NCBI GenBank assembly: GCA_963743975.1
Contig: CAVURS010000004.1
Span: 411,931 to 475,930 of the forward strand
Source of the DNA: an uncultured Actinomycetota bacterium
GTDB taxonomy: Bacteria; Actinomycetota; Actinomycetes; Actinomycetales; CAVURS01
Direction: 5' to 3'
DNA length: 64,000 nt
The position numbers were made by a program, and so were the translations under genes. Every line of letters starts with the position of its first letter. Positions within the stretch are counted from its first letter, which is position 1. Below, one piece after another: positions 2,335 to 52,425 of the stretch. Below the pieces are notes generated by a model. The model searched no databases, was not told the origin of the DNA, and worked only from the letters and a program-made list of their open reading frames with translations.

Positions 2335-3402
2335 TCAACGGATCAGAGGAGGCGGTGCCGTCGAGCCCCGCACCACGAGTGTGCCGCGCAACCGGTGATG
2401 GCTCGGCCGCCGCTCCCGGTCGTGGATGCGGCGAAGGAGAAGATCTGAGGCCTTGGCACCGATCGCGTGCACCGGCTGCCGGACGACCGACAGGGACGGG
2501 GCGACCACCTCCGCCCACTCGGCATCGTCGAAGCCGACCAGGGATACGTCGTCCGGGCAGCGCAGCCCGAGGGAGCGCAGCCCGAGGATCGCTCCCAGGG
2601 CGAGGACGCTGTCGAACGCCACGATGGCGGTCGGCGGCTCCGGTAGCGACATGAGCTCGCGGACTGACGCCGTCGCGTCGTCGCGGTGGAACCCTCCGGC
2701 CGTCAGGTACTCCGGCCGCGGGGCGAGCCCGGCCTCGAGCAGCGCGTCGCGGTAGCCGGCAGCGCGCAGCCCCAGCGTGGTCAGGGGCAGCTTCTCGATG
2801 CCTGTCAGATCCCGCTCCCGCAACGCCTCCTGCGTCCCGGGGGCGCCACCGGTCACGATGCCGATCCGCCGGTGTCCCAGACCGATCAGGTGCGAGGTCG
2901 CCTCGTGGGCCGCTCGCCGGTTGTCCAGTCCGACGGTGTCGACCCGGAGACCGGGAGCGGGCCGGTCGATCAGCACGACCGGTATCCGGGACTCGACGAA
3001 CGAGCGCAGCTGCGTGGCGTCACCGCTCTCGACCGGGCAGAGGATGAGGCCCTCGACGCGGCGTTCCAGCAGGGCGGTCACTGCCGTGCGCTCCTGAGCC
3101 GGGTCCTCGTCGGTGTTCGCGAGGAGGACGTCGAAGCCGTGGCCCCGCGCGGTGTCGCTGATGCCGCGGAGCACGCCGTAGAAGAACGGGTTCTCCATCT
3201 CGGCGATGACCGCGCCGATCGTGTGGGTCTGGCCGGTGATCATGCTGCGGGCCAGACCGTTGGGCCGGTAGCCGATCTCGGTCGCGGCGTCCATGACGCG
3301 TTGCAGCGTGAGCGGGCTGACCGAGCCGTATCCGCCGAGGGCCCGGGCGGCCGTCGCTGTGGACACTCCGGCCAGCGCGGCCACGTCGAGCACCGTCGCC
3401 AT
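2335..3402 (-). CDS. LacI family transcriptional regulator
   Basis: ORF 2335..3423. The N-terminal HTH is MATVLDVAALAGVSTATAARAL, followed by a periplasmic-binding-fold core (IGAVIAEMENPFF, GLILCP, VGFDD). The ATG at 3402 gives the canonical LacI N-terminus; GTG 3423 is the alternative start. It is divergent from the SIS/kinase/ABC operon. Confidence 0.9.
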   Translation of the reverse strand: MATVLDVAALAGVSTATAARALGGYGSVSPLTLQRVMDAATEIGYRPNGLARSMITGQTHTIGAVIAEMENPFFYGVLRGISDTARGHGFDVLLANTDEDPAQERTAVTALLERRVEGLILCPVESGDATQLRSFVESRIPVVLIDRPAPGLRVDTVGLDNRRAAHEATSHLIGLGHRRIGIVTGGAPGTQEALRERDLTGIEKLPLTTLGLRAAGYRDALLEAGLAPRPEYLTAGGFHRDDATASVRELMSLPEPPTAIVAFDSVLALGAILGLRSLGLRCPDDVSLVGFDDAEWAEVVAPSLSVVRQPVHAIGAKASDLLLRRIHDRERRPSHHRLRGTLVVRGSTAPPPLIR

Positions 3403-10898: not shown

Positions 10899-10964
10899 GG
10901 CGCTGAATGTACCGCACCCCTTGACCGCTCCCCGGCGACACTGGGATCGTTTGCCTACCAATGG

Positions 10965-10978
10965 TGGGAACGTTCTCA
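10965..10978. promoter_or_regulatory. Candidate LacI operator (TGGGAACGTTCTCA)
   Basis: 14-bp palindrome with one mismatched pair and a perfect GAACGTTC core, in the divergent LacI/MFS intergenic region. It shares TGAGAACGTT with the sites at 3584 and 3606. Confidence 0.5.
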
Positions 10979-11024
10979 ACATGTGAGCCGAAGGCTGGGT
11001 GCGCAGGTGTCGCGGGTGTGGCGG

Positions 11025-12272
11025 ATGGCCCTCCGGCAGCTCCAGCCGAGCGTGGATGATCCGCTGCCGCGGACCTTCTGGTGGCTCTGGTTGACGAACC
11101 TCCTCATCTGGTGCAGCCGGCTGGTCGTGCCGTTCCTGATGGTCTTCCTCACGCGCGACCTCGGCTGGTCGGTCTCGGCCGCGTCGGTGGTCTTCGCGGC
11201 GTACGGCGTAGGCGGCGCGGTCGCGGTCCTCGCGGCCGGCGCCGTCGTGGACCGGATCGATCCGCGGCGCACCCTGCTGCTCGCCCTTGCCGGGTCGACG
11301 GCCGCAACGGTCGCGCTCAGCCTGGCCCGGCAGCCGGTCGTGGTGGCCGTGGCCCTGGTCCTGCTCGGCGCCTTCCTGAACGGAATCGGGCCCTCGACGA
11401 ACGCCATGCTGTCGGAGCTCGTGCCGCGCCGGCTCCGCATTCACGGCTTCGCGGTGAACTACCTCGGCGTCAACCTCGGGTTCGCGATCGCCCCGGTGAT
11501 CGCCGCTCTGCTGGCGTCGTGGCACTTCCGGGCGATCTTTCCGGCCCAGGCGATCGGGCTCACCCTGGCGGCGGTGCTCACGTACCGCTGCCTGCGGCCA
11601 CCGGTGCGGGCCGAGCCGCTCCCGCCTGCGGTGCCGGTCGGCCCGCGGGGCGGACCGTGGTCGGACCGGCCGTTCGTCGGTTTCCTGACCGCCAACCTGG
11701 TCTTCCAGGTCGTCTACGTCCAGTCAACCGTGACCCTGCCCGTCATCATGCATCGGCAGGGGCTGTCCACCACCGATTTCGCAGCGCTGCTGACCCTGAA
11801 CGGCGTTCTCGTCCTGGTGCTGCAGCTGCCGGTCATGCCGCTGCTGACCCGCTGGTCCGCACCGTGGGCGCTGGTCGTGGCGGCCGTGGTCAACGCCGTC
11901 GGGTTCGGGTGTCCCGCCTTCGCTCACACCTGGGTGGAGTACGCCGGCTGTGTGCTGCTGTGGACGCTGGGGGAGCTGGTGAACATGCCCGTCGCCGCGG
12001 CGATGGCCGCGGACCTCGCGCCGGCCGGGCAGAGCGGCCGCTACCTCGGTGCCTTCTCGTCGACGTGGATCGTCGCGGTGCTTGTCGGGCCGGTGCTCGG
12101 CGCGACGACGCTAGACCGGTTCGGAGGACGAGGGGTCTGGTTCGGTTGTGTTGCCGTTGGTCTCGGTGGCGCCGCCCTGCGGGCCTGGACGGCGCCGGGG
12201 ATGCGCCGTCGGCTGGCGGCCGCCGCGGCCGACCTGCGTCCCGGACTGCCCGCCTTGCTGCCGCCACCGTGA
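11025..12272 (+). CDS. MFS transporter
   Basis: Inner ATG 11025 of ORF 9822..12272. It has about 12 hydrophobic segments, and the loop 2-3 motif region DRIDPRRTLL is typical of MFS. Confidence 0.8.
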   Translation: MALRQLQPSVDDPLPRTFWWLWLTNLLIWCSRLVVPFLMVFLTRDLGWSVSAASVVFAAYGVGGAVAVLAAGAVVDRIDPRRTLLLALAGSTAATVALSLARQPVVVAVALVLLGAFLNGIGPSTNAMLSELVPRRLRIHGFAVNYLGVNLGFAIAPVIAALLASWHFRAIFPAQAIGLTLAAVLTYRCLRPPVRAEPLPPAVPVGPRGGPWSDRPFVGFLTANLVFQVVYVQSTVTLPVIMHRQGLSTTDFAALLTLNGVLVLVLQLPVMPLLTRWSAPWALVVAAVVNAVGFGCPAFAHTWVEYAGCVLLWTLGELVNMPVAAAMAADLAPAGQSGRYLGAFSSTWIVAVLVGPVLGATTLDRFGGRGVWFGCVAVGLGGAALRAWTAPGMRRRLAAAAADLRPGLPALLPPP

Positions 12273-14248: not shown

Positions 14249-14325
<77 letters not shown>

Positions 14326-18383: not shown

Positions 18384-18746
18384 ATGTCTGTTGAGACGCG
18401 TGCGCCCGAGGGTGCACGAGTGAGTGGATTCGGTCCGGACTGGGCGAGCCGGGGGGCTTGCCGGACAGCTGACCCGGACGCGCTGTTCGTCCAGGGAGCG
18501 GAGCAGAACCGGGCCAAGCAGGTGTGCATGTCCTGCGTCGTGCGCACCGAGTGCCTGGCCGACGCCCTGGACAACGAGGTCGAGTTCGGCGTCTGGGGTG
18601 GCATGACCGAGCGCGAGCGCCGGGCCCTGCTCAAGCGCCGGCCGAACGTGAAGTCCTGGCGCCGGCTGCTCGAGGCCGCCCGCGCCGAGCACGAGCGCAG
18701 CCTGGCCACGACGGCCCCGGCTGAGCTCGTCGCCAACGCCGGCTAG
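18384..18746 (+). CDS. WhiB family transcriptional regulator (Fe-S, redox-sensing)
   Basis: 120 aa. Four Cys in the WhiB pattern (C..x..[10 protein letters not shown]), the GVWGG turn and a basic C-terminus. It occupies the whiB4-like position between the PBP and the ArsA-like ATPases. Confidence 0.9.
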
Positions 18747-19893
18747 CTAGCGCCCGAGGTCGCTGCCGACGGCGCGCAGCCCCTCGAGGTCGTGCACGTC
18801 GCCGTCGCGGGCCCGCACCCGCACCGACGGCACCCCCGGGTGCGCGCGGGCGAACCGCGCCGCCAGATCCTGCTCCCGGGTCGCCAGACTGACCCGCTGG
18901 GCGTGCAGCCGCAGCAGCCGCGCGGTCAGGTCGTGGCCACCCAGCTCGTCCAGCGTCTCGGCGCCCGCGAGGCTGCGCTCGGCCGACAGCGTGGACGGCC
19001 CGGCGTCGTGCACCCGGTTCAGGACGAGCCCCGCGAGGGGCATCCGCTCCTGCGCCAGCCGCTCCACGAAGTACGACGCCTCCCGCAGTGCGTCCCGCTC
19101 CGGTGCGGCGACCACCACGAACGACGTCCCCGGCGCCTTCAACAGCTCGTACGTCGCGTCGGCGCGCTCGCGGAACCCCCCGAACATCGTGTCCAGGGCG
19201 GCCACGAACTGCTGCACGTCGGTGAGCACCTGCGCGCCCAGGACCTTGGTGAGCGCTGCCGGTCACCGCGCCGACCCCCGCGCTCACGACCTTGAGGTAC
19301 GCCCGGCCGCCGGCTCGCGCGGGCGCGGCCAGGAGCTTGATCAGCCGCCCGTCCAGGAACGAGCCCAGCCGCTGCGGCGCGTCCAGGAAGTCCAGCGCCG
19401 AGCGCGACGGAGGGGTGTCGACGACGATCAGGTCCCAGTCCCCGCTGGCCTGCAGCTGCCCCAGCTTCTCCATCGCCATGTACTCCTGCGTGCCCGCGAA
19501 CGAGCTGGACAGCGCCTGGTAGAAGGGGTTGGCGAGGATCTGGGCCGCCTTGTCCGGCGTGCTGTGGGCCTCGACGATCTCGTCGAAGGTCCGCTTCATG
19601 TCCAGCATCATCGCGTCGAGCCGCCCGCCGCCCGCCCGGTCGACGCCCCTCACCTCGCGTGGGGTGTTGTCCAGCTGGTTCAGCCCCATGGACTGGGCCA
19701 GGCGGCGGGCCGGGTCGATGGTCAGCACGACGGCGACCCGCCCCTTCTCGGCCGCGCGCAGGGCCAGCGCGGCGGCGGTCGTCGTCTTGCCCACGCCGCC
19801 GGAGCCGCAGCAGACGACGATGCGGGTGGCCGGGTCGGTGATCACCCGGTCGAGGTCGAGAGCGACGTTCGATCCGGCACGGGTCGGGCTCAT
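18747..19893 (-). pseudogene. ArsA/Get3-like anion-transporting-type ATPase (Rv3680-like); one frame break near 19254
   Basis: The N-terminal part is in ORF 18631..19893 (deviant Walker [18 protein letters not shown]; DTPPS). The C-terminal part is ORF 18747..19229. The junction is read as ...GAVTGS / [16 protein letters not shown]. Confidence 0.85.
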
Positions 19894-20908
19894 GACATGC
19901 CCTGGTCGGCCAGCTGGTTCGCGAGCTCGTAGAGCGCCCCGAGGTCGATCCCGCCGGTCAGGGCGGGCAGCTGGTAGACCGGCCGCCCGGCGGCCCGGAC
20001 GCGGGTCAGCTCGCGCTTCTCCAGGGCGACCCGGGCGCCGTGCTCCGCGGCCTCGGCCAGCAGGCCGTCCACGACCGACTCCCGATCGGGCAGTCCGGCC
20101 GCGGCCAGCCCCTCGGCGACGGACGACCGGTCCAGCCGCCCGGCGGCTGCGGCGGTCAGCTCACGGGCCCGCAGCACCGGCTCGCGCACGGCGTTGACCA
20201 CGATCCCGCCCAGCGGCAGCTGGTGCTCGGCGAGCTCCTCGAGCGCGTCGAGGGTCTCCTGGACCGGCATCTCCTCCAGCAGGGTCACGAGGTGCACGAC
20301 GGTCTGGGGCGAGCGCAGCAGCCGGGTGATCGAGTCGGCCTGGTTCCGGATCGGCCCGACCCGGGCGAGCCCGGCCACCTCGGAGTTGACGTCGAGGAAG
20401 CGCACGATCCGCCCGGTCGGCGGCGCGTCCAGGACGACCGCGTCGTACACCGGCTGGTCGCTGGTGGCGCCCCGGCCACCGGACCGGGCGCCGGTCTTGC
20501 GCCGCACCGCCTCGTAGACCTTGCCGGTCATCAGCACGTCCCGCAGGCCAGGCGCGACGGTCGTCGCGAAGTCGACGACGCCGAACCGCTCCAGCACGTG
20601 CCGGCCCGCCCGAGCTTGTAGAACAGCTGGAGGTACTCCCACAGCGCGGCCTTGGCGTCGACGGCCAGCCCGAGCACCTCGCCGCCGCCGCGCCCGAGCG
20701 CGACCTTGCGCTCGACGTACGGCAGCGGCGGGACGTCGAACAGCTGGGCGATGCCCTGCCGCCCCTCGACCTCGGCCAGCAGCACCCGCCGCCCCTCGCT
20801 GGCCAGGGCCAGCGCGAGGGACGCGGCGACCGTGGTCTTGCCGGTGCCGCCCTTGCCGGTCACGATGTGGAGGCGCACGCCGTCCCAGTCACGATCACCG
20901 GCGGGCAT
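19890..20908 (-). pseudogene. ArsA/Get3-like ATPase (Rv3679-like); one frame break near 20604
   Basis: The N-terminal part is ORF 20531..20908 (IVTGKGGTGKTTVAASLA). The C-terminal part is ORF 19890..20642 (VVLDAPPTG). The junction is ...YKLGRAG / HVLERFGVVDF. Its stop overlaps the start of the downstream paralogue. Confidence 0.85.
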
Positions 20909-21004
20909 GCGGAAAGGCTAACGGCGGGACGCCGGGCTCAGCGCGGCGAGCGCCCGAGCACCCGGTCACCCGCTGTCCCTGGCCGGACGCCCCGGTCCGT
21001 CCTG

Positions 21005-21060
21005 CCTGTGGACAAGTCCTCGACTCCAGCCGCGACCCTGTGGACAGGGCCTGTGGAAAA
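21005..21060 (-). promoter_or_regulatory. Three copies of a DnaA-box-like motif (minus-strand reading TTGTCCACAGG, CTGTCCACAGGG, TTTTCCACAGG)
   Basis: Read directly on the + strand as CCTGTGGACAA 21005..21015, CCCTGTGGACAG 21036..21047 and CCTGTGGAAAA 21050..21060. They lie 97-150 bp upstream of the ArsA-like operon start (20908) and are oriented with that operon. Confidence 0.4.
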
Positions 21061-21108
21061 CCAGTGCCGTGCACGGCCGGCTGCTCGGGGCACGTTCCGC
21101 CCGACTCG

Positions 21109-21143
21109 CTCTGCTCTGCTCCCCCGTGGGGAGCAGAGCAGAG
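21109..21143 (-). terminator. Perfect 16-bp stem-loop downstream of the alpha/beta hydrolase gene
   Basis: CTCTGCTCTGCTCCCC cgt GGGGAGCAGAGCAGAG, 45 nt after the reconstructed stop at 21188. There is no U-tract, which is common in high-GC actinobacteria. Confidence 0.5.
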
Positions 21144-21187
21144 TCACTCGGCAGCGAGGTGGCGGGAGGCGCAGGCCGTTTGAACGA

Positions 21188-22125
21188 TCAACTTTCTGCA
21201 GCAGCGGCAGCGGCGGGGGATGGCGCGAGCGCGGTGAGACGGGCGAGGACAGCCGGCCAGGCCGGGCCGAGCGGGTCGATCAGGCCGAAGTGCTCGATGC
21301 TCCGGCAGCTCGCTGAGGTGGACGACTGACCGAGGCCCGGGCGTGGTGCCGGGCGTACCGGCGGCTGAGGTCGGGCGGCACGATCCGGTCCAGCTCGCCG
21401 TGGACCAGCTCGACCGGCACCGGCGGAGGGTCGAGCAGCATCGGGTCGGCCGCGGCGTACCGGTCGGGCACCTGGTCGGGGTCGCCACCGAGGAAGGCCT
21501 GGACGGCGCCGCGGTCCCCGGAGGCGCCGAGGCCGAGCTGGGCCGCCCGGCGCAGGTCGCACACCCCGGCCAGCGACACCACGCCGGCCAGCCCCGGTAC
21601 CGGCACCTGCGAGGCGGCCCAGAGGGCGAGGTGGCCGCCGGCACTGTGCCCGAGGAGCAGCACCGGGCGGGCGGGGGCGGCCGGCACGGTGGGTGAGGTG
21701 GGGGCGGCCAGCACGGTGAGGGCGGTTCGCACGTCGTCGGCGGTCCCGGGCCAGCCGCCGCCGGGCATGCCGGTACGGCGGTACTCGGGGGCGGCGACGA
21801 GGTAGCCGGCGGCGGCCAGCGCCTGGCCGAGCGGGCGGACGTGCGTCCGGTCGTAGCCGGCGCGCCAGAAGCCGCCGTGCAGCAAGACCACCAACGGCGT
21901 CGTGGGGGCGGTCGGGTCGGCCGGCCGCCAGAGGTCGGCCACCTGGTCGGGGCGCTCGCCGTAGCGCACCTCGGCGTCGGGGGGCGGCGCCGGGCGGTCG
22001 AGGATCTCGGCCGGGTCGCGCCGGCGCGGCTGAGGCACGGCAGCCAGCGTGCCAGCCGGCGCTACGCTCGCGCCATGCCGGACAACACCGCGTGGGAGTA
22101 CGCCACCGTCCCCCTCATCGTCCAC
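21188..22125 (-). pseudogene. Alpha/beta hydrolase (esterase/lipase-type, GHSAGG); two frame breaks near 21310-21335; start uncertain
   Basis: ORF 21280..22125 carries HGGFW and LLLGHSAGGHLALW. The C-terminus continues in two other frames (VVHLSELPE, then IEHFGLIDPLGPAWPAVLARL, stop 21188). The 22125 start overlaps the DUF4177 gene, so an internal start is likely. Confidence 0.7.
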
Positions 22126-45609: not shown

Positions 45610-45863
45610 TCCGGGTCACCCGCGGTGCCCCACGGAGTGGTGGAGCGGCTCGCCGGGTGACAAGGTTTGCCAGGACGAGCGCTGGGGGAGAGACTTTCTT
45701 ATGCCGGCTCTACGGAGCCGTGCCCCGCTCCGGCTCCTCCCCCCCGAGCCGGAGCGACAGACGGCCCCCGTTGTCCCCCCGACGGGGGCCGTCGCTACGC
45801 GCGGGGGGCTCCGGCCGCCGCCGTCTTCGGGTGCCTTGTCCCCAACCGGGCGGGTTCGTCGCA

Positions 45864-45874
45864 CCGTCCACAGC
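45864..45874 (+). promoter_or_regulatory. Single weaker copy of the TCCACAG motif (CCGTCCACAGC) upstream of the first tad operon
   Basis: Read directly. It lies 101 bp upstream of ATG 45975 in the same orientation as the downstream genes. Confidence 0.25.
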
Positions 45875-45974: not shown

Positions 45975-47102
45975 ATGCCGTCGTACGCCGTCCCTCCCGC
46001 CCCCGGCCGGTGGCCGGACGCACCGCCGGCGACCCTCGTCCTCACCCGCGACGCGGCCCTGACCGAGGTGCTGCACCGGCTGGCCGCCGTCGCCGGTGCC
46101 GAGCTGGACGTCCGCGACGAGCCCCCGGCGCTGGGCCGGTGGGCGGCCCCCGGCCTGGTCATCGTCGGGGCCGACCTCGTGGGCGCGGTGGCCGCACGGC
46201 TGCCGCGCCGTTCGGGGGTCGTGGTCGTCGGGCGGCAGGCCCCGCCCCGGGACGGGGCCGAGGACCGGCCGGGCAGCGACCTCTGGCGAGCCGCGATCGA
46301 GCTGGGCGCGGAGCGGGTGACGTTCCTCCCGGACGACGAGGACCACGTCGTCGAGGCGCTCGCCGAGCCGGCCGACCGGCGGCACCGGGCGGCCGTGGTG
46401 GCGGTCGTCGGCGGCAGTGGCGGTGCGGGAGCCTCCGTCCTGGCCACCGCGCTCGCCGTGGGCGCGGCCCGGCGCGGCCGCACCCTGCTCGCCGACCTGG
46501 ACCCGCTCGGCGGCGGCCTGGACCTCCTCGTGGGCGGCGAGCACCTGCCGGGGCTGCGCTGGCCGGAGCTGTCCGGCGCTCGCGGCCGCCTCGGAGGCGA
46601 CGTCCTGCGCGACGCGCTGCCCTGCCTGGACGGCCTGTCCGTGCTGTCGTGGGGCCGCGACCAGCCGCAGGCGGTGCCGGCCGAGGCGGCGGCCGCGGTG
46701 GCCGATGCGGCGCGCCGCGGGTTCGACGTGGTCGTCCTGGACCTGCCCCGGGCCGTCGAGCAGGTCGCTCCGGCCTGGCTCGGCAGCATCACGCTGGGGC
46801 TGCTCGTCGCACGGCCCACGGTGCGCTCGATCTGCGCCGCGGCCCGGGTGCTGCCCGAGCTCGACCGGTCGGCGCCGGAGGTGCGCCTGGTCGTCCGGAC
46901 CGATGGCGGTCACGGGGTGCCGGCCGACTCCGTCGCGGACACGTTGGGCCTGCCGCTGCTCGGGGAGCTCCGGCCCGAACCCGGCCTGCCGGCGGCGCTC
47001 GACCGCGGCGAGCCGCCGGGGCTGAGAGGCCGCTCTCCGCTCACCCGGCTGAGCGAACGGCTGCTGGACGACCTGGCCCGCGCCCACGCCGCCGCGGCAT
47101 GA
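45975..47102 (+). CDS. CpaE/Ssd-like ParA-family protein of the Tad locus (septum site-determining protein-like)
   Basis: Inner ATG 45975 of ORF 45657..47102. It has a degenerate P-loop (VVAVVGGSGGAGASVLATALA) and DLDPLGGGLDLL, which is typical of actinobacterial helicase/secretion-neighbourhood CpaE-like proteins. Confidence 0.8.
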   Translation: MPSYAVPPAPGRWPDAPPATLVLTRDAALTEVLHRLAAVAGAELDVRDEPPALGRWAAPGLVIVGADLVGAVAARLPRRSGVVVVGRQAPPRDGAEDRPGSDLWRAAIELGAERVTFLPDDEDHVVEALAEPADRRHRAAVVAVVGGSGGAGASVLATALAVGAARRGRTLLADLDPLGGGLDLLVGGEHLPGLRWPELSGARGRLGGDVLRDALPCLDGLSVLSWGRDQPQAVPAEAAAAVADAARRGFDVVVLDLPRAVEQVAPAWLGSITLGLLVARPTVRSICAAARVLPELDRSAPEVRLVVRTDGGHGVPADSVADTLGLPLLGELRPEPGLPAALDRGEPPGLRGRSPLTRLSERLLDDLARAHAAAA

Positions 47103-48352: not shown

Positions 48353-49221
48353 CCGCGGTGATCCCGCTGTCCGGCCCTCCCGCGCTCCCCGTCCTGGCAG
48401 CGGCCCTGGGTGGGGCCGCCGTCCTGGTCTGGCCGGTCCGGCCGTCGGCCACCGCCCGCCTGGCGCGGCGGGTGGGGAGTCCTGTCGACCGCGCAGACCG
48501 CGCAGCCCCCCGACCGGCGCTGCTGCGCCACCTGGCCGCGCTCGTACCGCCGCGGCCGCCCGCACCGGGTCAGGTGGACCGGGCCGCGATCGCGCTCCTG
48601 GAGGCCCTGGCCGCTGCCCTGCGGGCCGGGCTGTCCCCGGCTCAGGCGCTGCACCACGTCGCCGCTCTGGGGGACTTCGGCGATCCCGCCGCTGCGGGCG
48701 CGGACGGCGCAGCCTCGGGTGGGCCGGCCGGTCCGGCGCTCCGTCGTCGGATCGGGCGGTGGCGCCGTGCCCGGAGCCGGCCCGACGAGATGGCGCTCCT
48801 CGCGGCGCGCCTGGCCGGGCACGCGTCGACGGGCGCGCGGCTGGAGCCGGTGCTGCGGGCGGAGGCCGAGCGGCTGGCGAGCCCGGCCCTGCTCGCGCTC
48901 GCCGCCGGGTGGGGGATGAGCGAGCGGTTCGGCGCACCGGTGGTGGACGTTCTGGACGGCCTGGTCGGCGCCCGCAGGGACGCCGCGCGGACCGCCGCCG
49001 CGGTGGAGACCGCCCTGTCCGCTCCCCGGGCCACCGCGTCGCTGCTGGCCGCCCTGCCGTTCGGTGGAGTGGTGCTCGGCGAGGTGGTCGGGGTCAGTCC
49101 GCTGGCCACTCTCTTCGGCACGTCGTTCGGCCGGGTCGACCTCGCCGCCGGCCTGCTCGCGACCTGGGGCGGCCGGGTCTGGATGCGCCGCCTCGTCCGC
49201 GCGGTGTCCTCGACGCCGTGA
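48349..49221 (+). CDS. tadB: Type II secretion system F family membrane protein (TadB-like)
   Basis: 290-aa ORF overlapping neighbours at both ends. It has an N-terminal TM, a T2SS-F-like region (LEALAAALRAGLSPAQAL) and C-terminal TM helices. Confidence 0.7.
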   Translation: MTAVIPLSGPPALPVLAAALGGAAVLVWPVRPSATARLARRVGSPVDRADRAAPRPALLRHLAALVPPRPPAPGQVDRAAIALLEALAAALRAGLSPAQALHHVAALGDFGDPAAAGADGAASGGPAGPALRRRIGRWRRARSRPDEMALLAARLAGHASTGARLEPVLRAEAERLASPALLALAAGWGMSERFGAPVVDVLDGLVGARRDAARTAAAVETALSAPRATASLLAALPFGGVVLGEVVGVSPLATLFGTSFGRVDLAAGLLATWGGRVWMRRLVRAVSSTP

Positions 49222-49880: not shown

Positions 49881-49911
49881 CCGCCCACGCGCGGGACCGG
49901 TCCCGCAGCGG

Positions 49912-49950
49912 GTGTCCACAGGGCCGGCCTCACGTCCCGGCATCCACAGG
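49912..49950 (+). promoter_or_regulatory. Two copies of the TCCACAGG motif (GTGTCCACAGGG and GCATCCACAGG) upstream of the flp-like pilin gene
   Basis: Read directly at 49912..49923 and 49940..49950, with cores 28 bp apart. They lie 86-125 bp upstream of ATG 50037 in the same orientation as the gene. Confidence 0.4.
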
Positions 49951-50036: not shown

Positions 50037-50243
50037 ATGTTCGTCTACCTCCTTGACCGCCTACGCCTTCGCTCCCTTCAGCGGGAGGACCGGAGGGACG
50101 ACAGCGGGATGACGACCGCGGAGTACGCGATCGGCACGCTCGCCGCCTGCGGGTTCGCCGCTCTCCTGGTGACGATCCTGCGCAGCGGCACGGTGCAGGG
50201 CCTGCTGCTCGGCGTCATCCGCTCCGCGCTGGCCCTCGGCTGA
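50037..50243 (+). CDS. Flp-like pilin (DUF4244 family)
   Basis: Inner ATG 50037 preceded by AGGAG. The G/MTTAEYAIGTLAA processing-site-like motif is followed by a hydrophobic helix. 68 aa. Confidence 0.75.
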   Translation: MFVYLLDRLRLRSLQREDRRDDSGMTTAEYAIGTLAACGFAALLVTILRSGTVQGLLLGVIRSALALG

Positions 50244-51978: not shown

Positions 51979-52425
51979 TCAGGCGTCCTCGCCCGGCACG
52001 TACCGGCGCTCCGGCCCCGGGTCGTCGGCGTCGCCGTAGGCGTGGGCCGCATGCGCGGCGGGCGCCGGCTCCTGGTCCCGGACGTCGAGCGGCGCGTTCG
52101 CGGGAGTCTCGGCCACCCGGGCCTCGGCCTGGCGCGCCTCGGCCTGCCGGCTCTGCGCCGCAGCCTCCTCGGCCCGCTGGGCCTTGAGCTCGCGCCGCCG
52201 CATCCGCCCACGGCGGGCCGAGCGGGCGAACAGCGCGAGGGCGAGCACCAGCAGGAGCATCGCGACGGCACCGGCACAGAACACCCACAGGACGCTGGTC
52301 GTGAGGTGCTGGCCGTACCCGTTCAGGTGAACCTGGACGTGCTGCCCGCTGTGGACGGCCGCCACGGCGGCCAGTGCGGCCAGCACGAGCAGCACGACAC
52401 CGATCACGATCATCAGAGCCTCCAC
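51979..52425 (-). CDS. Hypothetical two-TM membrane protein with charged Ala/Glu/Arg-rich C-terminal tail
   Basis: 148-aa ORF. It has two hydrophobic helices, then RRRELKAQRAEEAAAQSRQAEARQAEAR. I assign no family with confidence. Confidence 0.6.
   Translation of the reverse strand: MEALMIVIGVVLLVLAALAAVAAVHSGQHVQVHLNGYGQHLTTSVLWVFCAGAVAMLLLVLALALFARSARRGRMRRRELKAQRAEEAAAQSRQAEARQAEARVAETPANAPLDVRDQEPAPAAHAAHAYGDADDPGPERRYVPGEDA

Follow-up and report, generated by a model that had tools for sequence, protein, structure and literature searches.

Putative DnaA boxes outside the replication origin, upstream of ssd-tad, pilin, and ArsA genes in an uncultured actinobacterium

Introduction

The initiator protein DnaA binds an asymmetric 9-mer, the DnaA box, as a monomer through its domain IV, and the box tolerates change at position 3. 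To our knowledge, DnaA regulons beyond model Proteobacteria and Firmicutes are almost unknown, and work on actinobacterial DnaA has been confined essentially to the replication origin (oriC). Outside oriC, the DnaA-regulated promoters of Escherichia coli (dnaA, nrdAB, mioC, polA, and purH) and its titration and reactivation loci (datA and DARS1/2) carry 9-mers of the TTNTCCACA class, in many cases with a G after them (PMC11317965). Sites bound in chromatin immunoprecipitation sequencing are typically TTATCCACAg and usually end in TCCACAg, with TTTTCCACAg at mioC and TTATCCACAgg at dnaA (PMC11317965, Table 1), and in vivo they need two boxes 2 to 3 bp apart, such that one base added to a 3-bp gap strongly cuts binding (PMC11317965). 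The DnaA-box consensus of Mycobacterium and Streptomyces is TTGTCCACA (PMC4285127, Table 1), and Streptomyces oriC boxes follow [T/C][T/C][G/A]TCCAC[A/C], or YYRTCCACM (PMC3583192). Here, we analyzed a 64,000-nucleotide stretch of DNA from an uncultured Actinomycetota bacterium (GenBank assembly GCA_963743975.1, contig CAVURS010000004.1, positions 411,931 to 475,930), referred to as the window, in which three motifs resembling DnaA boxes lie upstream of a gene for an ArsA/Get3-like ATPase (ArsA1) and further copies lie upstream of ssd and of a pilin gene at the tad locus.

Like the E. coli sites outside oriC, the motifs extend the 9-mer by G and form clusters of two or three upstream of genes, with one orientation per cluster (PMC11317965); unlike those sites, they precede genes that are not known DnaA targets (ArsA/Get3-like ATPases, ssd-tad, and a Flp-type pilin). 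With actinobacterial oriC boxes they share the consensus (TTGTCCACA or YYRTCCACM), tolerated variants including TCCCCA, and a flank signature. They differ from actinobacterial oriC in number (2 to 3 boxes versus 17 to 25) and in being all co-oriented with the downstream gene, and neither dnaA/dnaN nor an unwinding element lies near the ArsA cluster. We consider it moderately probable that these motifs are extra-oriC DnaA boxes, which would either render promoters responsive to DnaA or titrate the protein.

Results

The minus strand of positions 21005 to 21060 reads gg-TTTTCCACAGG-cc-CTGTCCACAGGG-N19-ac-TTGTCCACAGG-ca, with gg-TTTTCCACAGG-cc at 21050-21060, cc-CTGTCCACAGGG at 21036-21047, and ac-TTGTCCACAGG-ca at 21005-21015. 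The distal box 1 (TTTTCCACA followed by GG; 21052-21060, minus strand) and box 2 (CTGTCCACA followed by GGG; 21039-21047, minus strand), which starts 4 bp past box 1 in a 13-bp period, each have one mismatch to TTGTCCACA. The proximal box 3 (TTGTCCACA followed by GG; 21007-21015, minus strand) matches perfectly this Mycobacterium/Streptomyces consensus. A first-pass annotation of the window had reported the three motifs, their core spacings of 13 and 32 bp, and their matches to the DnaA-box consensus, and all of these agree with the sequence and with the published consensus. Its placement of the cluster 97 to 150 bp upstream of the ArsA1 ATG at 20908 has the start and the near edge right; the far edge lies at 152 bp.

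The motif is real and non-random. Three exact copies of the 10-mer TGTCCACAGG occur in the window (21005 and 21037 on the minus strand, 49913 on the plus strand) against 0.09 expected, and none of 100 shuffles reached three; a literature search for this 10-mer returned primers only. The 7-mer TCCACAG has 14 copies (expected, 6.95), a count reached by one shuffle in 100, and the 8-mer TCCACAGG has five (expected, 2.0). All five 8-mer copies are intergenic and face the gene that follows: three of them precede ArsA1, and the other two (49915 and 49943) precede a DUF4244 pilin gene. Together with ssd, which has a copy at 45867 and a TTGTCCCCA variant at 45836, these are the three promoter regions that had been annotated. 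The remaining copies of TCCACAG lie inside or overlap coding sequence, as at 3357, within a LacI-type helix-turn-helix, and at 52421, which overlaps a start codon. At one mismatch or less, TTGTCCACA is found seven times versus 4.5 expected, which alone is not significant, and the signal resides in the clustering and in the extension to positions 10 and 11, not in the TTGTCCACA count. Among the figures of the first-pass annotation, the expectation of about 0.1 10-mer copies and the 10-mer count hold (its third copy, given at 49914, is at 49913), the by-eye tally of about 13 7-mers was one short, with positions right within one base except for 52359 (in fact 52349), and the GC content estimated at about 72% is 73.7%.

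The annotation's remark that the motif is shared with the tad locus pointed to what we regard as the more interesting result: a co-oriented box pair lies upstream of ssd-tadABC in all 10 genomes examined, which span four orders. In the window, ssd (septum-site-determining, TadZ-like; 45976-47102, plus strand; PF26563 Rv3660c_N in the identical contig L201) is the first gene of the tad operon and is preceded by a 6C small RNA gene (45724-45797, plus strand; Rfam RF01066, 55.9 bits versus a gathering score of 47). The boxes begin 42 nt past the 6C 3' end. Box A, the TCCCCA variant TTGTCCCCA (45836-45844, plus strand), is conserved in L202; the TCCACA box B (CCGTCCACA followed by G, or CCGTCCACAGC read from 45864; 45864-45872, plus strand) follows 28 bp past it, with GTCGC at 45858-45862 between the two. 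The 28-bp spacing recurs in relatives with TadA identities of 89% (L202), 77% (L203), 70% (L204), and 68% (L207), and Angustibacter luteus (L205, 61%) has three ssd boxes, 19 and 28 bp apart. In a six-genome alignment of the ssd upstream region, nothing is invariant except box A, a G.C.C element, and the GTCCACAG part of box B.

A module of the same design precedes the DUF4244 Flp-like pilin gene that follows tadC (50037-50243, plus strand; PF14029, E = 8e-24). It spans 49912-49948 on the plus strand and comprises GTGTCCACA (49912-49920), GTCCC (49934-49938), and GCATCCACA (49940-49948), with its TCCACAG cores 28 bp apart. This lineage module, TCCACAG-N12-GTCCC-N4-TCCACAG, stands before the pilin operon in the window, L202, L204, and L207, and before an XRE gene in the relative L081. 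Four of the six lineage genomes checked have the pilin upstream pair, and in L204 the pilin operon is separated from tadC and the boxes have relocated with it. Over 1.19 Mb of actinobacterial loci, we counted 14 same-strand TCCACA pairs 5 to 40 bp apart where about one was expected. A spacing of exactly 28 bp is found in 9 of the 14, or in 8 of 13 independent pairs once L201, a duplicate of the window, is set aside. The strict module was absent from viral contigs, and blastn of the 6C-ssd region against plasmids gave no matches.

Outside the lineage, the ssd boxes persist and their spacing varies: TTGTCCACAG and AGATCCACA are 20 bp apart in Streptomyces, TTATCCACAG and TCCCCAG 23 bp apart in Nonomuraea, TTCTCCACAGG and TTATCCACA 18 bp apart in Nocardia (from 38 nt past 6C), and two copies of TCCTCCACAG 30 bp apart in Tsukamurella. 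The box pair lies downstream of a neighboring 6C in 8/10 genomes (the window, L202 to L205, L207, L331, and L332); 6C falls below the Rfam gathering score in Streptomyces (L206) and Tsukamurella (L333). From this distribution, we infer that the pair at ssd-tadABC is ancient.

Directly upstream of 6C is a plausible sigma-A promoter (TTGCCA-N18-GAGACT), and no TANNNT -10 element was visible near the tad modules. The tadC stop is immediately followed by a perfect palindrome, GCGGGACCGGTCCCGC (49891-49906), with pilin box A 9 nt further on; the palindrome contains the GTCCC pentamer and is probably a terminator. A DosR box at GGGACCGGTCCC (49894-49905) was rejected because its spacing is wrong and it resembles this tadC terminator. 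We also rejected GTCCC as a third, degenerate DnaA box, which would overlap box B.

The promoter-linked boxes resemble those of real origins in their flanks as well as in their cores. Of 30 such boxes, 4 match TTGTCCACA perfectly and 13 with one mismatch, and 20 fit YYRTCCACM; a pyrimidine is found at position 1 in 26 and at position 2 in 28, and G at position 10 in 27. For a comparison of flanks, we set 33 promoter-linked boxes from 12 genomes against oriC-region boxes from Nonomuraea, Arthrobacter, and Nocardia chromosomes filed as plasmids in PLSDB and against 235 background TCCACA copies. T at position 2 had a frequency of 0.58 among promoter boxes and 0.53 among those of oriC regions, against 0.08 in the background; for G at position 10, the three values were 0.94, 0.53, and 0.18, respectively. 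Promoter boxes thus carry the flank signature of oriC-region boxes, whereas random TCCACA copies do not.

In the three origin regions, dnaA is flanked on either side by dense TCCACA and TCCCCA boxes, among them TTGTCCACAg, CTGTCCACAggg, TTTTCCACAgg, and ccTTGTCCCCAaccc; the last of these agrees with ssd box A of the window in both variant and flanks. The unusual ssd variant ccTTGTCCCCAacc recurs verbatim in the Nonomuraea dnaA-dnaN region, where TTTTCCACAgg, CTGTCCACAggg, and the 13-bp period of boxes 1 and 2 are also present. Canonical TTATCCACA occupies promoter-linked positions in L199, Nonomuraea, and Nocardia. The same box types and canonical TTATCCACA also form 11- to 12-bp head-to-tail arrays in phage- or plasmid-like contigs of 36 to 69% GC, a spread that only a universal factor would fit and that points to a universal binding protein.

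Three IMG/VR contigs of 65 to 69% GC (L100 at 10960-11110, L250, and L270) have 11-bp-period head-to-tail arrays directly upstream of a gene, in which TTATCCACA, TTGTCCACAGG, CCGTCCACAGG, and GTCCCCA variants are mixed; these probably serve as DnaA-recruiting origins or as operators in mobile elements of actinobacteria. Two PLSDB entries filed as plasmids (L328, L330, L331, and L332), NZ_LT559118.1 (11.85 Mb, Nonomuraea gerenzanensis) and NZ_LN868939.1 (2.66 Mb, Nocardia farcinica), contain dnaA together with an oriC-like field of boxes, as well as the 6C-ssd-tad locus, and are chromosomes or chromosome fragments. In Terrabacter sp. (L071, 2650-2830), intergenic sequence that lies about 1.2 kb upstream of ArsA contains a perfect TTGTCCACA and, 30 bp further on, ATCCACAG; the inverted repeat ATCACCTCGAA/TTCGAGGTGAT occurs several times before these boxes, and the open reading frame downstream of them has no Pfam match.

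The boxes upstream of ArsA1 are confined to the window and its nearest relative. The gap between the esterase gene and ArsA1 measures 279 bp in the window and 277 bp in that relative, L199 (93% ArsA identity), compared with 49 bp in L200 (89%), 20 bp in the P0004 contig (86%), and 48 bp in L081 (82%); the last three have no boxes there. The additional sequence, a lineage-specific insert of about 225 bp (20966-21187, minus strand) with a hairpin and the three boxes, separates the esterase stop from the conserved ArsA1 promoter. Short, box-less gaps in the relatives and an insert in the window and L199 only argue that the boxes came with the hairpin on this insert, upstream of an older, unchanged promoter, and the triple box is a recent, lineage-specific addition, inserted in the common ancestor of this genome and L199.

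Scans of genome and metagenome contigs for ArsA, in which the matches listed have 56 to 71% identity (closer relatives were retrieved individually), extend this pattern. In 80 of these genomes, the 400 bp upstream of ArsA contain TCCACA only as occasional, isolated copies, with neither TCCACAGG nor a cluster of boxes, and none of 160 distant ArsA loci among the matches listed has a box pair. Conservation at orthologous ArsA promoters, a check that the first-pass annotation had named as able to refute its reading, is poor: among the loci compared, the boxes occur in the window and its 93% relative only. Within that pair of genomes, L199 retains the hairpin, the distal TTATCCACAGC, and a proximal TTGTCCACAGG identical to that of the window, box 3 included; its middle box has decayed (AATCCGCAGC, with the degenerate AATCCGCAG in place of box 2). 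The distance from box 1 to box 3 is exactly 45 bp in both genomes, though the intervening sequence has diverged, and the L199 distal box is TTATCCACA, so that the variation falls at position 3.

The XRE/HTH_3 gene of L081 that carries the full 28-bp box module (region 18995-19180) is an accessory gene absent from the window. The sequence upstream of it has the hairpin arms TCTGCTCTG/CAGAGCAGA of the ArsA hairpin (9-nt arms common to both), followed by a TTTTCCACAG box after 49 nt (48 nt in the window) and then by CTGTCCACAGGCAG. Local alignment to this region gave z = 5.7 for the window and z = 3.2 for L199, which is suggestive of a common cassette origin; the cassette may be a dispersed one.

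The wider ArsA locus is a conserved actinobacterial block of a PBP gene, a WhiB4-like gene, two ArsA genes, an esterase gene, and a MerR gene, for which the nearest named relatives are Angustibacter and Kineosporia (about 70 to 74% identity). ArsA1 (19890-20908, minus strand; PF02374) is preceded by a -10-like hexamer, TAGCCT (20915-20920, minus strand), which lies 6 nt before the ATG (20906-20908), is conserved in the window, L199, L200, and L081, and by its position suggests a leaderless transcript. Reading frames are broken in four genes: ArsA1 near 20600, ArsA2 (18631-19893, minus strand) near 19250, where the frame is lost after about 215 amino acids, the esterase gene near 21330, and tadC near 49200. 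A separate Logan contig, L201, is 100% identical to the window over 5,183 bp including tadC, gap-free; the broken frames are either shared assembly errors of a long-read metagenome-assembled genome or real pseudogenes.

The hairpin on the insert (21109-21143, minus strand) has a perfect 16-bp stem (fold, -46.1 kcal/mol; z = -7.1), lies 3' of the esterase gene (stop codon, 21188-21190), is also kept in L199, and is probably the esterase terminator. It has no second copy in the window. An Rfam scan of the ArsA leader returned only sub-threshold microRNA-like matches to this hairpin and no family, and a known riboswitch or small RNA family in the leader was rejected on that ground. A tRNA gene at 14252-14325 (minus strand; Rfam, 65.8 bits) marks the point where synteny with L081 shifts, and beyond this neighborhood L081 carries a peptidase S15 gene and the XRE gene.

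Discussion

The consensus and flank matches, made in silico, support reading the motifs as DnaA boxes, as the first-pass annotation proposed, and monomeric binding of domain IV to an asymmetric 9-mer fits boxes that are all oriented alike. The annotation was also right that the ArsA cluster is not oriC: its neighbors are the esterase, two ArsA genes, WhiB, and PBP, it has three boxes only, no AT-rich unwinding element is present, the window lacks dnaA and dnaN, and tblastn for DnaA found none in the window or in loci L001 to L207.

Several observations weigh against this interpretation. Ten of the 30 promoter-linked boxes fall outside YYRTCCACM, G occupies the first position of several tad boxes, and the preference for G at position 10 is sharper in promoter boxes (94%) than at oriC (53%). 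Boxes are separated by 2 to 3 bp in E. coli, whereas those at ArsA have gaps of 4 and 23 bp and those of the tad modules a gap of 19 bp, and no IHF or Fis context is evident; the double-box spacing rule may differ in this phylum, given the 13-bp period in Nonomuraea. DnaA by itself does not account for the strict 28-bp geometry and the GTCCC of the tad modules, which may reflect a promoter element or the site of a second protein. The ArsA cluster is not conserved past L199, and its boxes lie 85 to 140 bp upstream of the conserved -10 element, which makes a direct promoter role there, the weaker part of the annotated reading, doubtful.

Some of these points would be met by a different, actinobacteria-specific protein whose site, GTCCACAG, overlaps the DnaA box by coincidence or competition, which we consider unlikely. 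Such a protein would bind the 28-bp direct repeats and GTCCC and control ssd/tad and pilin genes, with ArsA and the XRE gene recruited later. The strict TCCACAG-N12-GTCCC-N4-TCCACAG geometry, the near-invariant G10, a conserved core offset to the 3' side of the 9-mer, and spacings that violate the E. coli rules are all in its favor. However, positions 1 and 2 show the T/pyrimidine signal of DnaA boxes, canonical TTATCCACA appears at these positions in L199, Nonomuraea, and Nocardia, and outside the lineage the spacing changes and the boxes alone persist. No candidate protein is apparent either; the window contains no homologue of the L081 XRE gene, and autoregulation by the product of that gene was ruled out for that reason.

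A second alternative concerns the ArsA cluster only, which may be a DnaA-responsive or titrating site or a mere passenger. On the latter account, which we judge improbable, the triple box is functionless and was carried on a duplicated or mobile cassette of about 225 bp consisting of the hairpin and the promoter-upstream region of another gene. The restriction of the insert to the window and L199, the decay of the middle box in L199, the unchanged ArsA promoter downstream, and the resemblance of the cassette to the XRE upstream region of L081 (the TCTGCTCTG/CAGAGCAGA arms, TTTTCCACAG at a distance of 48 or 49 nt, and YTGTCCACAGGCAG beyond it) would be expected of a passenger. Retention of two boxes at exactly 45 bp within otherwise diverged sequence would not, and the homology to L081 is suggestive only, since the L199-L081 score is within shuffle range. 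Nor does the window contain a second copy of the hairpin.

Other regulators fare less well. The boxes as core promoter elements for an alternative sigma factor, for example, one of ECF41/SigJ type (motif TGTCACA-N16-CGTC) with CGTCCC as the -10, are highly improbable: GTCCACA-N17-CGT(C/T)C does follow the ArsA proximal box, ssd box B of the window, and pilin box B of L202, and the tad modules lack a visible TANNNT, but in the other eight modules CGTC lies at variable distances of 5 to 24 nt, the strictly conserved CGTCCC 12 nt past box A is closer than any sigma-70-family spacer would allow, and a -35/-10 pair does not consist of two identical boxes at a 28-bp spacing; we ruled out sigma promoters on this inconsistent spacing. 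The motif of PafBC RecA-independent DNA damage promoters, tTGTCRgtg-N8-TAnnnT, is likewise actinobacterial and begins with TTGTC, but CACA replaces RGTG here and no TAnnnT lies 8 nt downstream, and it was rejected on these grounds. MtrA sites of Mycobacterium, Corynebacterium, and Streptomyces are also direct repeats in actinobacterial promoters, in their case at cell division genes, and MtrA also binds oriC. MtrA recognizes 9-nt units of GTnAC type that recur after a gap of 2 nt (11-bp period) (PMC6265350), and it was ruled out by the GTCCAC core and the periods of 13, 28, and 32 bp found here. A CRP site was ruled out because the boxes are not palindromic.

If the motifs are DnaA boxes, they would mark a small set of promoter-upstream regions: an ancient one at ssd-tadABC, one at the pilin operon in this lineage, and a recent one at ArsA. 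Occupancy by DnaA would modulate transcription of the downstream operon, so that expression of ssd/tad, of the pilin, and, in this lineage, of ArsA would be tied to the status of replication initiation; the boxes may additionally titrate DnaA. At ArsA, the upstream boxes are too distant from the conserved leaderless promoter for simple occlusion, and an effect there would need DnaA oligomerization or looping, a second promoter, or titration only. Tentatively, and on comparative grounds, we suggest that DnaA directly controls actinobacterial ssd-tad through an ancient box pair and that the regulon of this lineage has grown by the pilin modules and the ~225-bp ArsA cassette. We found no report linking DnaA boxes to ssd/Rv3660c or 6C in the literature searched.

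The ssd division-site protein is implicated in mycobacterial filamentation and dormancy. If the proposal is true, the status of replication initiation would be coupled to division-site and pilus functions, namely, ssd and the Tad secretion ATPase and membrane proteins. By itself, the ArsA cluster is a modest, lineage-specific case, which shows a possible route of regulon expansion through insertion of a short, box-bearing cassette. The ssd box pair, present in Kineosporiales-like bacteria, Streptomyces, Nonomuraea, Nocardia, and Tsukamurella, would offer a concrete, testable link from replication initiation to a division-site protein.

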